Of a stretch of DNA of 64,000 bases, positions 9,613 through 39,720 are shown piece after piece. Position 1 is the first letter of the stretch. Each line of letters opens with the position of its first letter. The notes under the pieces are model-generated. The model was not told where the DNA came from. It worked only from the letters and a program-made list of their open reading frames with translations, and ran no database searches. Source of the DNA: a virus. Taxonomy: Duplodnaviria > Caudoviricetes. The DNA is taken from the IMG/VR virus record IMGVR_UViG_3300028805_000061, one strand, 5' to 3'. The position numbers and the translations under genes were made by a program.

Positions 9613-9645
9613 ATAAAAAGAGGAAGTAGATAATTATCTACTTCC
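9612..9645 (-). terminator. bidirectional intrinsic terminator closing cassette 1
   Basis: Perfect 24-bp palindrome GGAAGTAGATAATTATCTACTTCC (9622-9645) followed by a T-rich tract on the - strand; lies between convergent genes. Confidence 0.85.
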
Positions 9646-9674
9646 AAAGAAGTTTGGTAAAATATTTTGAAGTT
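9643..9674 (-). repeat. cassette 3' conserved element, copy 1
   Basis: TCCAAAGAAGTTTGGTAAAATATTTTGAAGTT, 31/32 identical to 37546-37577. Confidence 0.95.
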
Positions 9675-9679
9675 CCTCC

Positions 9680-10309
9680 TTAATTTCGCTTTGTGAAGGT
9701 TAAAATATCTGTTGTATCACCATTACCCTGCTGACTATAGCGATTATATCCACAACCATAAAGTTCACCATCGTTAGTTAAGTACCATGTTGTTGTATTT
9801 GAACAAGCAAAATCTTTTACATTACTTGCTCTTTGAGTAAACCTTGTAACATCTGTTGTATCGCCTGAACCTTGTTGACCGTAATTATTCCATCCACAAC
9901 CATAAAGTTCACCATCGTTAGTTAGATACCATGTAACGCTACTTGAACAAGCAACTTGTGCTACATTACTTGCTCTTTGAGTAAAATGTCTAACACTTGA
10001 TGTATTTCCTGAACCTTGTTGGCCATAGTTATTACCTCCACAACCATATAATTCACCGTTGTTAGTTAGATACCATGTTGTTATATCTTGGCCAATAATT
10101 TGTGCTACGTTACTTGCACGTTGGGTAAAGGTTAAAACATTCGCTGAACTTCCTGAACCTTGTTGATAATAGTAACTATATCCACAACCATAAAGTTTAC
10201 CATCGTTAGTTACATACCAAGTTGTATAATCTGAGCAAGCAAAATCTTTTACACCACCGGCAATTTTTCGAAATCCTCCAAGGGGTTCCAATTTTGTTTT
10301 TATACCCAT
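9680..10309 (-). CDS. RCC1/BLIP-II-like repeat protein (4 x 48 aa) with MGIKTKLEPLGG tag; putative receptor-binding tip protein
   Basis: Four 144-nt repeats V....CS...TWYLTNDGELYGCG.N.YGQQGSG....V..FTQRASN; RBS AGGAGGTG. Confidence 0.85.
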   Translation of the reverse strand: MGIKTKLEPLGGFRKIAGGVKDFACSDYTTWYVTNDGKLYGCGYSYYYQQGSGSSANVLTFTQRASNVAQIIGQDITTWYLTNNGELYGCGGNNYGQQGSGNTSSVRHFTQRASNVAQVACSSSVTWYLTNDGELYGCGWNNYGQQGSGDTTDVTRFTQRASNVKDFACSNTTTWYLTNDGELYGCGYNRYSQQGNGDTTDILTFTKRN

Positions 10310-10341: not shown

Positions 10342-10385
10342 TAAAAATACCAGTTAAAAAAAATCCTATATAGGACACTCGAAAA
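10342..10385 (-). promoter_or_regulatory. cassette 5' conserved element, copy 1 (palindrome TCCTATATAGGA plus A8/T8 tract)
   Basis: TAAAAATACCAGTT-A8-TCCTATATAGGACACTCGAAAA, identical to 39029-39074 except tract length. Confidence 0.85.
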
Positions 10386-10465
10386 AGCTTTATCTTTTTA
10401 ACAAAAAGAAAACATTTTTTTCATTTCTATATATACTTATAAATAATTCAAATAGGAGAAAAGAA

Positions 10466-11266
10466 ATGAAGATAGATAAATTTCCATCTAGAATTCAAAG
10501 TATAATAGAAGAATTTGAATCAAAAGAAAATCAGAAAAGATGGAGATATCTTTTAAAGATAGGTAATAAGACATTAGTAGCATCAAGAATAGAATTCAAT
10601 GAAAATACAAATGAAGCATTTGTAAAATATTCAGCGTCATCTTCAAATGGTTATAAAATAAATCCTTTATTCATTGAAAAGCTTTCTGATATACAAATAG
10701 AAAAAACAAATATTATTAGAAAGAAATTAGGATTAAGAGCACCATTAAAAAGAAGACCGATAGAAAGAGATGAATTAGGAATTCCCATTAAAAAACCAAG
10801 AAGAGAGAAAAAGAATAAAGAATTATCAGAATTAGAATTTAAAGCAATGTTTGACCCAAGATTTATTTCTAGTGAAACAAGAGATGAATTATTTGAAGAG
10901 AAAAATCTTTCTGGAGGAGCAAGATTACCAAAGAAAGCATTTAAAAAGATAAAACCTGAATTTAGAGAAGCCGTAAAATCTTTCCTTTCTAAATATATAG
11001 ATTTACATACTATTACAGCTGATTATAAAAGAGATAATTATGGAACACTTTCATTAATAGTAGGAAAAACTTTTACTAATAATGGACAAATTGATCCCAG
11101 ATTTAAAACATATAAAAGCTTTACTTTAATACATAGACAAGGTAAACCTTATGTAAAAGTAATTCAGAATTCAGTGAAAACTGGAACAGATACTATATTT
11201 TATTTAATAAATGAAGATACTTTATTACAAGTTAGTAAAAGTCTTAGGTACAGAAATCGTGGTTAA
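10466..11266 (+). CDS. basic hypothetical protein
   Basis: RBS AGGAG; TATAAATA at 10438-10445 upstream. Confidence 0.7.
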   Translation: MKIDKFPSRIQSIIEEFESKENQKRWRYLLKIGNKTLVASRIEFNENTNEAFVKYSASSSNGYKINPLFIEKLSDIQIEKTNIIRKKLGLRAPLKRRPIERDELGIPIKKPRREKKNKELSELEFKAMFDPRFISSETRDELFEEKNLSGGARLPKKAFKKIKPEFREAVKSFLSKYIDLHTITADYKRDNYGTLSLIVGKTFTNNGQIDPRFKTYKSFTLIHRQGKPYVKVIQNSVKTGTDTIFYLINEDTLLQVSKSLRYRNRG

Positions 11267-32327: not shown

Positions 32328-32966
32328 ATGTCAATATTTTTCAAAAATACTAGTAAAACTAAATCAATTAGTTTAAGATATGGTGATGGTAATAATAATA
32401 TGATTCAATTAAAACCTGGCCAACAACAACCCATACCTTCAATATTTAATAAACAAAAACTACAATCTTATTTACGTTTATTTAAAGATTTGAAAATAGT
32501 AGAAGAACTTGAAGAAATAAAAGAAGAAAATAATGATATAACAGGAGAAGTAAATGGAGATTCTATTAAAGATAATTCAGAAAGTCAATTATCTACACCA
32601 GACGATACCTCAGGAGAACAGCAAGATAATCTTAATTCACAAGATGATAATCAACAGACAGAAAATCAAGAGGGAAACAATGATCCAGTAGTAAATGGAC
32701 CTGTTGAAGGGGAACAGCCAGAAAATCAAGAAGGGGACAATGATCCAGTAATAAATGGGTCTGTTGAAGGAGAACAGACAGAAAATAGAAATACTGAAGA
32801 TCAAGAAAAAGATAAACTTCCTATATATACTGAAAAAGAATTAAATAAATTATCTGCTGGAGAAATAAAAGAGATTGCTAAAAAATTAGGTATTGAAGTT
32901 ACAGAAGATTCTACTAAAAAAGCATTAATACCTGTTATATTAAATAAACAAGGAAAATTAGAATAA
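32328..32966 (+). CDS. acidic protein with C-terminal Rho-N/HeH-like domain
   Basis: LNKLSAGEIKEIAKKLGI......KKALIPVIL; internal 20-aa tandem repeat. Confidence 0.7.
   Translation: MSIFFKNTSKTKSISLRYGDGNNNMIQLKPGQQQPIPSIFNKQKLQSYLRLFKDLKIVEELEEIKEENNDITGEVNGDSIKDNSESQLSTPDDTSGEQQDNLNSQDDNQQTENQEGNNDPVVNGPVEGEQPENQEGDNDPVINGSVEGEQTENRNTEDQEKDKLPIYTEKELNKLSAGEIKEIAKKLGIEVTEDSTKKALIPVILNKQGKLE
32653..32786 (+). repeat. 60-bp in-frame tandem repeat (about 2.2 copies)
   Basis: ENQEGNNDPVVNGPVEGEQP / ENQEGDNDPVINGSVEGEQT / EN. Confidence 0.85.
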
Positions 32967-33877
32967 TGAATAATATGACAAAATATTCTAAAGAGATTAT
33001 AGAAGAATTGTATATTAATCAAAATAAAACTAGAAAAGAGATTTGTGAAATTTTAAAAATTTCTTGTAAAAAGTTTTGTAAGATGATAAAAGATTATGAT
33101 ATATATAAATCTAAAGATAAAATAATTTCTAGAATAAAACAGTCTAACATAAATACTTATGCTACTGGGAAACCTCAAGAAAAAATAAAACAAACTTTTA
33201 TAAAAAATTGGGGAGTTGAAAACCCCAATAAATTACTTACAATTCAGAATAAGAAAATTAATACTTCTTTAGAAAGATATGGAGAATCCCATCCCAATAA
33301 ATCTAAAGAAGTAAAAATTAAAATTTCTCAAAGTAATAAAAAAGTATATGCTACTGGAAAACCTCAAATAAAACAACAAGAAACTTTTCAAAAAAAATAT
33401 GGATATAATACCCCTCTATTAATTCCTAAAATTAGAGATAAGATTAGAGAAGGTTTTGATTCAGGTATTACACAACTGAAAGACTATAAAACCAAAAAGA
33501 AAAATAAATCTTTTAATAAATCAAAACCAGAAGAAGAAGCTTATCAATTACTCTTAACAAAATTTCCAGTAGAAGATATTGAGAGACAATATAGATCTGA
33601 ATTATACCCATTTAATTGTGATTTTTATATCAAATCCTTAGATCTATTTATAGAATGTAATTTTCATTGGACACATGGGAAATACCCCTATACGAATATT
33701 AAAGACCCTTTATTAGAAAAATGGGAAACAAGAAAAGATAAAAAATTCTATCAAAAAGCAATTGAAGTATATACTAGATTCGATCCTTTAAAAAGAAAAA
33801 TGGCTCAACAAAATAATCTTAATTGGATTGAATTCTTTACTTTAGCTGATATTTACAATTATATAAAGGAGTTATAA
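32966..33877 (+). CDS. free-standing homing-type endonuclease (PD-(D/E)XK, Vsr-like)
   Basis: HTH N-terminus, repeated K..T...KYG..NP motifs, SKPE...ERQY...FNCDFYI...DLFIECN.HW.H. Confidence 0.75.
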   Translation: MNNMTKYSKEIIEELYINQNKTRKEICEILKISCKKFCKMIKDYDIYKSKDKIISRIKQSNINTYATGKPQEKIKQTFIKNWGVENPNKLLTIQNKKINTSLERYGESHPNKSKEVKIKISQSNKKVYATGKPQIKQQETFQKKYGYNTPLLIPKIRDKIREGFDSGITQLKDYKTKKKNKSFNKSKPEEEAYQLLLTKFPVEDIERQYRSELYPFNCDFYIKSLDLFIECNFHWTHGKYPYTNIKDPLLEKWETRKDKKFYQKAIEVYTRFDPLKRKMAQQNNLNWIEFFTLADIYNYIKEL

Positions 33878-37526: not shown

Positions 37527-37548
37527 AAGGAGAACATAAATGTTCTCC
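37521..37548 (-). terminator. terminator closing cassette 2
   Basis: GGAGAACAT-AA-ATGTTCTCC stem (37529-37548) followed by TTTTATTT on the - strand; same position as the cassette 1 hairpin. Confidence 0.8.
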
Positions 37549-37577
37549 AAAGAAGTTTGATAAAATATTTTGAAGTT
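37546..37577 (-). repeat. cassette 3' conserved element, copy 2
   Basis: TCCAAAGAAGTTTGATAAAATATTTTGAAGTT, compared with 9643-9674. Confidence 0.95.
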
Positions 37578-37687: not shown

Positions 37688-38998
37688 TTAATAAGGTTTG
37701 CAAGAGAGGGAAGCACCAAAGTTACTATAGGTAGAAGGACTATCGCTTAAAGGGCTGTTGTAAGCCAGATACACAGAGAAAAGACCACCATTGGATATGG
37801 CATTGTAGTAGCCACCAAAATAAGCACAACCAACGAGCGAGCTGGAAGAGCTCAGGGCGCAGCCGACTTGGTCGCAGTAGTAAGTATAATTTGAACCAGG
37901 GGTTGGATAGCCTGAAGAAGGAAAGTACCACATAATACCATCTGAAGTATTAGGCACTCCTAAATTGCATAAATTTATACCTCCAACTCCATTATATCCA
38001 GTATACGATTTATAACCTGGGCTACTACTTGTTGGGTCATAACTAATAGCAGTGGTTCCATCTGCTGTATAATTACACAACTTATAAAATATTTTTGATT
38101 GATAACAAGTTAAACCATTTATCCATTTATTACAATTACCCCATAAGTTTTCCATACCAAAGAATTTAACAGGTGTAGTGCTTGATGAAGTATTATTTGT
38201 AGAATAGAACATAGGCTTATCTTTTAATGAACCAGTAGAAGTCGTTTTTGTACCGCCTACAACTCCACCTCCACATTTACTTTGGCTATCTCTTGATTTA
38301 AACATTAAAATAAATAACATCTGTATCATTTGTAATGTTCCTAAGTCAAGAAAATCCCAACCGTTACCATTTGCTTGAGCATAAGTTCTCATTGTAGTAC
38401 CAGCAACTGTATTTACTAGAACAGTCCGTCCTGCTAAACTTCTTAATGTACTACCTGTCAATGATGGTTCAAAAGCTGCTGTATAAATTTCATCAAGTAA
38501 AATACCATTATTGTTATAATGTGAATAACAATGGTATTTGCCATCTACATTTTCAGGAGCTATAAAAACATATTGATATCTGCCTGTTGCGTCGGTGCTT
38601 AAATTAGTACCATCTGCTGAATTTGAAGTTCTAAATTTAAGCCAAACTTGTGGAAAACCTATCATGCAGTTTCCTTTGTATTGTCTATTACTTATATCAC
38701 TTTCAGTTCCATCAAGTTTCTTTGTAAAATCATTATGATCTAATTCGTAATCAACTGTTCCATCATACTTTAACATTACAGGTCTTGGCTGAAAGAAAGC
38801 ATTTTCCCAACTACCATAATCTAATTGACCTGTTGTAAAATCCATGCTCGCAGGGGTATAATCAGCGTTATTGCCAAAATATGTTACTGCTGTTGTGGGA
38901 TCAGAATTTGTGGTGTCTATTATAAAGCAATATTCTTCTGCGTTTCCACCTCTTTTTATTAAACCCCCTAAAGGTTCCAATTTTGTTTTTATACCCAT
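37688..38998 (-). CDS. C-type-lectin-fold (Mtd/FGE-like) receptor-binding protein with MGIKTKLEPLGG tag; DGR-target-like C-terminus
   Basis: Reads on the - strand (CCCAT at 38994-38998; track label + is wrong). FFGMENLWGNCNKWING...YYCD...FGGYY....NGGLFSV.L......S.FGASLSCKP. Confidence 0.85.
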   Translation of the reverse strand: MGIKTKLEPLGGLIKRGGNAEEYCFIIDTTNSDPTTAVTYFGNNADYTPASMDFTTGQLDYGSWENAFFQPRPVMLKYDGTVDYELDHNDFTKKLDGTESDISNRQYKGNCMIGFPQVWLKFRTSNSADGTNLSTDATGRYQYVFIAPENVDGKYHCYSHYNNNGILLDEIYTAAFEPSLTGSTLRSLAGRTVLVNTVAGTTMRTYAQANGNGWDFLDLGTLQMIQMLFILMFKSRDSQSKCGGGVVGGTKTTSTGSLKDKPMFYSTNNTSSSTTPVKFFGMENLWGNCNKWINGLTCYQSKIFYKLCNYTADGTTAISYDPTSSSPGYKSYTGYNGVGGINLCNLGVPNTSDGIMWYFPSSGYPTPGSNYTYYCDQVGCALSSSSSLVGCAYFGGYYNAISNGGLFSVYLAYNSPLSDSPSTYSNFGASLSCKPY

Positions 38999-39028: not shown

Positions 39029-39074
39029 TAAAAATACCAGTTAAAAAAAAAATCCTATATAGGACACTCGAAAA
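39029..39074 (-). promoter_or_regulatory. cassette 5' conserved element, copy 2 (palindrome plus A10/T10 tract)
   Basis: TAAAAATACCAGTT-A10-TCCTATATAGGACACTCGAAAA. Confidence 0.85.
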
Positions 39075-39171: not shown

Positions 39172-39720
39172 ATGAGACCTACGATTAACCAGCTTAGAGC
39201 TCTAACTGATTTCGCTCCCTCATATAGGTGGGATATGAATGCTGCATTACCAGCACAAGTTGCTCAAGCTATCAATTCTTATGAATTGAATTTAAGAACT
39301 ACTTCATTCACTATTCCAAAAAGAACCGTTGATCCAATAGAAGTTGCAAATAGAGGCCACAAAATTTATAGAGAAGGGATTACTTCATTCTCTCAACAAA
39401 TATCTCTTTCTACTATTGGTACAATAGATGCAATGGCTCATAAAGCAATTAGGAATTGGCACATGATGCAATGGTCAGATGATGGTCAAACTGTTTATGG
39501 TAGAATGTCTTCTAATAATCCATTAGATAGACAAGCTATTATTACATTAACTGCTTTAAATAATACTGACCAACCTTATTGGAGCTATACTATTATGGGC
39601 TGCTGGTTACAAGATAGTGATTTTGGAGAATATGGTTCAGATTCTTCAGATATTATTAGACCCTCTATGACTATCAATTATGATTACTTTATTGATGGAC
39701 CAGCTTCAACTGCAGCTTAA
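39172..39720 (+). CDS. tail tube protein (T4 gp19-like)
   Basis: YRW...TSFTIPKR...IEV..RG.KI...G...WH...YTIMGCW...SMTINYDYF. Confidence 0.8.
   Translation: MRPTINQLRALTDFAPSYRWDMNAALPAQVAQAINSYELNLRTTSFTIPKRTVDPIEVANRGHKIYREGITSFSQQISLSTIGTIDAMAHKAIRNWHMMQWSDDGQTVYGRMSSNNPLDRQAIITLTALNNTDQPYWSYTIMGCWLQDSDFGEYGSDSSDIIRPSMTINYDYFIDGPASTAA

Follow-up and report, generated by a model that had tools for sequence, protein, structure and literature searches.

A repeated T-tract element upstream of four reverse-oriented accessory genes in a T4-like phage: a candidate non-canonical promoter module

Introduction

Among the systems described so far, the closest architecture is that of the promoter-early stem-loop (PeSL) regulatory cassettes of the T4-type phages RB49 and phi1, which are portable front ends, made up of a promoter and a stem-loop, that stand before accessory genes at hot spots of shuffling (PMC2839356). 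The element analysed here, found in the genome of an uncultured, virulent, low-GC, T4-like phage, is loosely similar to them. Like a PeSL, it is a short repeated intergenic cassette that brings together an AT-rich stretch, a sequence capable of forming a stem-loop, a putative promoter and a Shine-Dalgarno sequence, and it lies directly upstream of non-core genes of a T4-type myovirus, where modules have been swapped. Two features of PeSLs, the consensus sigma-70 promoter and the stable stem, are absent: PeSLs possess consensus sigma-70 -35 and -10 hexamers and stable G/C-rich terminator stems, whereas here there is no -35 and the stem is a weak one of 5 bp. Moreover, a genome has about 50 PeSLs, oriented like the genes next to them, while the present element occurs four times, antisense to the surrounding late genes, and unlike PeSLs has a long homopolymer as an integral part.

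Other parallels concern the arrangement of promoter parts. T4 middle promoters combine a MotA box at -30 with a sigma-70 -10 hexamer, at a spacing of about 12 ± 1. The present element similarly has a phage-specific conserved box instead of a -35 together with a putative host-type -10, but the sequence of its box is unrelated, its spacing is 13–17 nt, and a search of the genome returned no MotA homolog. SSR promoter switches are known from the poly(A) tract of Mycoplasma hyorhinis vlp (17–20 nt), the poly(C) tract of Bordetella fim, and porA and opc of Neisseria. In these switches, the mononucleotide run separates an upstream recognition element from the -10, as it probably does in the present element; on the other hand, they are cellular, and their switching has been demonstrated.

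With the T/A-tract rheostats of Helicobacter pylori sabA and hp_0350, the element shares an uninterrupted T run at or within the core promoter (here putative), the association with adhesin-type genes, tract lengths that differ among copies or strains, an AT-rich genome and a location in divergent intergenic regions (PMC4081817). The H. pylori tracts, however, are mostly 13–16 nt long, and both their length variability and their effect on RNA polymerase binding have been measured (PMC4081817), whereas those described here are 8–11 nt long, belong to a phage and are known from sequence alone. In phages themselves, contingency loci have been described in the A runs of T2 agt and T4 rIIA; in the A9 run of T2 agt, +/-1 variants were present at ~7e-4 in unselected stocks, and reversion was ~1000-fold faster than point mutation (bioRxiv 10.1101/2025.10.21.683753). 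PolyG tracts in the receptor-binding genes of Campylobacter Fletchervirus phages are mentioned in the same source (Sorensen et al. 2021, cited in bioRxiv 10.1101/2025.10.21.683753). The present element resembles these loci in carrying a homopolymer in a T-even-like or other myovirus, and slippage and diversification of progeny have been described for them; they act, however, by frameshifting within coding sequence, while the tract described here lies between genes, where transcription is all that it could affect.

The Element and Its Two Copies in the Window

The source record is an IMG/VR virus of 144,741 bp, with 27.7% GC and a CheckV value of 100%, in which nearly all genes lie on the + strand. 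The stretch analysed in detail, hereafter the window, comprises 64,000 nucleotides and corresponds to genome bases 60620–124619; positions given without further qualification are those of the window.

At site 1 (10342–10385, minus strand), the element reads TTTTCGAGTG-TCCTATATAGGA-T8-AACTGGTATTTTTA. Its first two parts, TTTTCGAGTG (10385–10376) and TCCTATATAGGA (10375–10364), constitute a conserved upstream box (10364–10385) that scores 37.8 bits with a position-weight matrix, against 13 for the best non-member. The T8 tract follows (10356–10363; A8 on the + strand) and is one of four A/T runs of at least 8 nt in the genome. The third part, AACTGGTATTTTTA (10342–10355), is a putative extended -10 that includes AACTGG (10355–10350), within which TG occupies 10352–10351, and TATTTT (10349–10344), a hexamer invariant in all four copies of the element. 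Downstream of the block, 17 nt lead to AGGAGG (10324–10319), and a further 9 nt lead to the ATG at 10309.

Site 2 is a block on the same strand at 39029–39074, with its ATG at 38998. By sequence comparison its upstream box (39053–39074) is identical to that of site 1 over all 22 nt, its tract is T10 (39043–39052; A10 on the + strand, again one of the four long runs), and its AACTGGTATTTTTA (39029–39042; TATTTT at 39036–39031) is read as a putative extended -10 from an alignment with a + strand paralog that is discussed below. The 22 and 14 nt on either side of the tract are identical between the two sites at 36 of 36 positions, and tract length is indeed, as the original prediction had it, the sole difference within the shared block. 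The 15–17 nt between block and ribosome-binding site have diverged. The sequences also bear out the proposed minus-strand order of TTTTCGAGTG, the palindrome TCCTATATAGGA, T8 or T10, AACTGGTATTTTTA, ribosome-binding site and ATG. The perfect 12-bp palindrome is present at both sites, but is unremarkable by itself, with 36 such palindromes in the window and 77 genome-wide.

Four Copies in the Genome

When the whole genome was searched by pattern and scanned with position weights, exactly four copies emerged, all on the minus strand; they score 30–39 bits, and the runner-up site reaches 13. Both copies reported earlier are real, and the count rises to four with two more outside the window. Copy 3 (genome 126893–126914) has the box TCCTGTATAGGA and, in place of a pure T run, the interrupted run TTAATTTTT; in full it reads TTTTCGAGTGTCCTGTATAGGA, followed by TTAATTTTTATTA, TATTTT, a single A and ATG. 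Copy 4 (genome ~129262–129307) reads TATTCGAGTAGATTTTAAAGGA-T11-AGTAGGTATTTTT, that is, T11 followed by AGTAGG, TATTTT and T. An unbroken T run is consequently present in three of the four copies (T8, T10 and T11). Every copy occupies an intergenic gap between divergent genes and immediately precedes the reverse-oriented one; the genome-wide scan detected no box upstream of + strand genes, and the three other minus-strand genes of the genome are devoid of the element. An invertible segment is ruled out, as all four boxes share one orientation.

Across the four copies, TTCGAGT, T.TA.AGGA, part of the T-rich stretch and TATTTT are invariant, with distances from box to TATTTT of 14, 16, 13 and 17 nt in copies 1–4, respectively. 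Copies 3 and 4 have diverged, yet they retain TTCGAGT, AGGA and TATTTT at the same places, and flanks and UTR differ among copies while box and TATTTT are kept. Such patchy conservation argues for constraint on the retained positions, beyond what recent duplication alone would leave, conservation being measured here on four paralogs within one genome, with no orthologous elements found elsewhere.

Searches of other collections delimit how far the locus extends. Neither locus had a BLASTN match among 50,697 isolate phage genomes, and scanning IMG/VR, JGI metagenomes and GTDB genomes for the exact box pattern returned nothing, while a degenerate pattern retrieved from IMG/VR only unrelated contigs of 31–51% GC whose flanks are unlike those of the element. 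At the protein level, queries with the tail tube and tail proteins reached a best identity of 35% in IMG/VR and GTDB genomes, and the query with the RCC1 protein of site 1 found relatives at 31–37% identity only; in Logan/ENA, tail-tube homologs with 63–90% identity exist. The single close DNA relative, a metagenomic sequence (L006) whose tail tube is 84% identical, has a different gene at the site of cassette 2. Within L006:290–1500, the place of that cassette is taken by a 282-aa + strand ORF, which is flanked by inverted repeats of ~19 nt, tcacttgtgttgtcgata and tatcgacaacacaagtga, and may be a small mobile insertion.

Genes and Cassettes Behind the Element

The gene of site 1 (9680–10309, minus strand) encodes a 209-aa four-blade RCC1-repeat protein (P0001) with the N-terminus MGIKTKLEPLGG, and that of site 2 (37688–38998, minus strand) a 436-aa tail protein (P0002; phrog_5302, E = 6.6e-51); the two proteins have only their first 12 residues in common. 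Outside the window, in the genome section L008, copy 3 precedes a gene for a 192-aa protein with weak HNH similarity and motifs (L008:2295–2873, minus strand), and copy 4 a gene for a 394-aa protein (L008:4040–5224, minus strand) whose N-terminal part has no assigned domain and whose C-terminal Hint/intein-like domain ends in HN. A GT2 glycosyltransferase gene lies between these two genes on the + strand. Because the element also fronts the HNH-like and Hint-domain genes, it is not specific to tail tips, and the label “tip cassette” used originally proved too narrow.

Terminators were found after cassettes 1, 2 and 4. In the terminator scan, cassette 1 ends in an intrinsic hairpin with a T run (9622–9645, minus strand), which is preceded by a 32-nt block (9643–9674; repeat D14) that is shared with cassette 2 (37546–37577), where it precedes an intrinsic terminator hairpin at 37529–37548 on the same strand. 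The 5′UTR of copy 4 (L008:5225–5280, equal to genome 129224–129279, minus strand) contains AAAAAGGAGATTATTAATTG, which matches at 17 of 18 positions AAAAAGGAGATTAGTAAAATG, the Shine-Dalgarno and start region of cassette 2, and which precedes copy 4's own Shine-Dalgarno sequence and ATG. This apparent fossil of the cassette 2 start indicates that the front end was reused with a new payload. In the manner of PeSLs, a repeated cassette thus stands directly upstream of accessory genes, with payloads swapped behind a shared front end.

On the other side of the divergent gaps, site 1 is adjoined by a + strand gene at 10466–11266, which has a T4-late-like TATAAATA ~28 nt upstream of its ATG, and site 2 by the tail tube gene (39172–39720, + strand). 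The TATAAATA motif occurs on the + strand just outside the box at 10436–10443 and likewise at genome 126918–126925. Its position upstream of divergent + strand genes suggests that late transcription may restart after each antisense cassette.

Long A/T Runs in the Genome

The 144,741-bp genome contains 355 A/T runs of at least 6 nt, 26 of at least 7 nt and 4 of at least 8 nt. Markov simulations of order 1, 3 and 5 lead one to expect 88, 66 and 17 runs of at least 8 nt, respectively, so that long A/T runs are depleted 4- to 20-fold genome-wide. Three of the four that exist are the T8, T10 and T11 of the element, which lie at genome 70975–70982, 99662–99671 and 129275–129285, respectively. The T run is hence real and unusual for this genome, and the purging of long A/T runs elsewhere, together with the survival of three of four within the element, marks the T run, or T-richness, at this place as selected. 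Copy 3 keeps box and -10 with the interrupted run TTAATTTTT, from which it follows that the element does not require an unbroken, slippery tract.

The fourth run is an A8 at 33390–33397, within a 303-aa ORF (32966–33877); no other long homopolymer of the genome falls in coding sequence. This A8 is a candidate for a contingency site of the frameshift type, or for a site of transcriptional or translational slippage.

A Putative Promoter Module

The extended -10 proposed in the original prediction, TGGTATTTT in sites 1 and 2, is a reasonable assignment, with AGGTATTTT at the same position in copy 4 and TTATATTTT in copy 3. Apart from the invariance of TATTTT in all four copies, it draws on a + strand paralog, the third MGIKTKLEP gene of the genome (genome 31391–32611; upstream region in L020, genome 31250–31450), which encodes a protein of 406 aa with eight RCC1 blades. 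This gene has in common with site 2 the 5′UTR (AAAAATACTTTTAAAAGGAG) and the first 26 coding nt, and has neither box nor tract. Exactly 2 nt before the shared UTR, the paralog has a perfect TATAAT, and site 2 has TATTTT at the same place. Being invariant and aligned with the TATAAT of the paralog, TATTTT is likely the -10, which puts the T run at about -19 to -29, between box and -10. The tract ends 6 nt upstream of TATTTT, and the alignment supports the predicted anatomy, in which a change in tract length would alter the spacing from box to -10. The TG of sites 1 and 2 would likely stand at -15/-14, with transcription starting ~7 nt downstream of TATTTT. In copy 3, a Shine-Dalgarno sequence is absent and two ATG codons follow TATTTT at 1 to 8 nt, an arrangement that fits a leaderless transcript from a TATTTT -10.

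No -35 hexamer at constant distance is present in the four copies, and a scan with the sigma-70 consensus calls no promoter shared by them. Two other assignments were rejected: a -10 inside the palindrome (TATATA) is not conserved in position in copies 3 and 4 and is missing its final T, and a -35 at the 3′ end of the tract (TTAACT) has a good -10 at the right distance in site 1 only. A k-mer enrichment analysis of 77 upstream regions yielded no sharp phage promoter motif.

Canonical TTGACA-N17-TATAAT promoters are present elsewhere in the genome. Near-perfect sigma-70 promoters, TTGACA-N17-TATAAT and TTGACT-N18-TATAAT, precede small + strand genes at genome ~131770–131830 and 132160–132230; they are probably early promoters, in contrast with the box module.

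Among sigma factor domains, Sigma70_r4 was not found in the genome, and Sigma70_r2 gave a sub-threshold match only (genome 15668–15817). That match lies in a 267-aa ORF (L007:1333–2136, genome 15500–16303) with Sigma70 region 2 alone, at 18–21 bits, which is below threshold; the product may be a gp55-like late sigma factor.

We regard it, with moderate confidence, as probable that a small promoter module of a non-canonical type serves the four reverse-oriented, self-contained accessory cassettes, and that the tract is its T-rich spacer. The module would consist of three parts, namely a conserved upstream box (TTCGAGT-N6-TnTAnAGGA), a T-rich spacer of 13–17 nt, with an uninterrupted run (T8, T10 or T11) in three copies, and the -10 hexamer TATTTT, which both window copies combine with an extended-10 TG. 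Behind it would follow a 5′UTR, which has a Shine-Dalgarno sequence in all copies but copy 3, then the gene, and then a terminator, at least for copies 1, 2 and 4. Host RNA polymerase would use the TATTTT -10, and the box, at about -27 to -50, would either bind a dedicated factor of phage or host origin or act as an upstream activating sequence that replaces the -35, while the rigid T run would fix the geometry between box and -10. The tract lengths would then be paralog-specific states produced by ordinary replication slippage, and may set differing promoter strengths for the individual cassettes. Several observations weigh against such a module: the four copies have no recognisable -35 at a fixed distance, the conservation is that of four paralogs in a single genome, the range of 13–17 nt from box to TATTTT is wide for a rigid activator or a -35 geometry, and the MotA and sigma factor searches of the genome produced no candidate for a factor that binds the box.

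Alternative Explanations

The tract could instead make the element a contingency promoter, in which slippage alters the length of the T run, promoter output changes in an on/off or rheostat-like manner, and sibling phages come to differ at each cassette; as an account of the element as a whole, we consider this rather unlikely. The tract does lie between a conserved box and a likely -10, and three lengths occur in three copies, with the flanks of sites 1 and 2 identical at 36 of 36 positions. The removal of long A/T runs elsewhere and their retention here is the classic bioinformatic signature of a contingency locus. Slippage at the frequency described above for the A9 run of T2 (bioRxiv 10.1101/2025.10.21.683753) and the rheostat function of promoter-proximal T tracts in H. 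pylori sabA and hp_0350 (PMC4081817) offer precedents, and two of the four genes encode adhesin-like virion proteins.

Tract length, however, speaks in part against it. The H. pylori survey applied a cut-off of at least 9 nt, and typical tracts there have 13–16 nt (PMC4081817); T10 and T11 pass this cut-off, T8 falls below it and far short of the typical range, and the run of copy 3 is interrupted. That run is non-slippery, and box and -10 are still kept; the element also precedes the HNH-like gene, for which bet-hedging has no obvious use. In addition, rare slippage over evolutionary time also yields length differences among paralogs, with no regulatory role needed. The position of the tract, its three lengths and the genome-wide depletion fit a switch and an occasionally slipped T-rich spacer alike, and the data can be accounted for without a programmed on/off switch. 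By analogy, phase variation or sabA-like rheostat tuning is mechanistically plausible. The more specific proposal that the poly-T tracts are independent rheostats or switches for the antisense cassettes, including those of the two adhesin-like virion proteins, so that bursts would contain mixed decoration states, is in our judgement quite doubtful.

Under another explanation, the block is kept mainly as DNA, as a recombination junction with homology arms for modular exchange of cassettes, sites 1 and 2 are identical through a recent duplication or gene conversion and not through function, and the difference in tract length is a neutral indel. Common to sites 1 and 2, around unrelated payloads, are the upstream block, the first 26 coding nt and the 32-nt downstream block; the UTR of copy 4 carries the apparent fossil of the Shine-Dalgarno and start region of site 2, another gene occupies the site of cassette 2 in L006 (tail tube 84% identical), and shuffling through homology arms has been proposed for PeSLs (PMC2839356). 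The diverged copies 3 and 4 nevertheless keep TTCGAGT, AGGA and TATTTT in place, which selection on function explains better. Furthermore, the four copies are direct repeats, and recombination between them would delete essential late genes. A recombination junction is also compatible with the promoter module and not an exclusive alternative to it; as the main reason for the block's conservation, it is improbable.

It is very improbable that the palindrome and the U run form a minus-strand intrinsic terminator, attenuator or insulator, akin to the stem-loop of PeSLs, whose termination is tuned by tract length. A hairpin-capable 12-mer does stand directly before T8 or T10, and PeSL cassettes do pair a terminator stem-loop with a promoter (PMC2839356). 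The stem, however, has 5 bp with 2 G-C pairs, and its -3.9 kcal/mol corresponds to z = -0.4 relative to shuffled sequences; the terminator scan misses the palindrome yet calls the true terminators of the cassettes, and an Rfam search of the element gave no match at E ≤ 1. Nor do hairpin and run go together, since copy 4 has T11 without the palindrome and copy 3 has the palindrome with a broken run. Upstream on the same strand there is no transcription unit but only the start of the divergent gene, and as all four copies lie in divergent gaps, with the upstream neighbour on the other strand, there is nothing to terminate. The attenuator offered originally as an alternative to the switch is not supported by these observations.

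In E. coli, upp and codBA exhibit UTP-sensitive reiterative transcription, with an initially transcribed GA that is followed by T8 or T6. A comparable role for the element, with the box as a promoter for another polymerase specificity and UTP-sensitive reiterative transcription starting at or in the T run, would agree with the promoter-like size of the 22-nt conserved box, with TnTAnAGGA directly before the run, and with the resemblance of its TATAGGA or TAAAGGA end to a T7-type initiation region and in part to the T4-late TATAAATA, but is extremely improbable, as it leaves the invariant TATTTT and the TATAAT of the paralog unexplained, the break in homology with the paralog lies downstream of TATTTT and not at the box, and the genome yielded no T7-like RNA polymerase (a weak argument, as the control search was also without a match).

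Implications

If the tracts are only part of a dedicated promoter, the element is an ordinary example of a portable front end for inserted, backward-facing accessory genes, and as such would be useful for the annotation of similar uncultured phages. The genome also illustrates a cheap screen for candidate promoter contingency loci in other phage genomes, namely long homopolymers that have been purged except at one repeated regulatory element. If tract length does modulate expression, the newly proposed concept of phage contingency loci would extend from frameshifts in genes to promoters, and the dosage of virion adhesins could vary among sibling phages.
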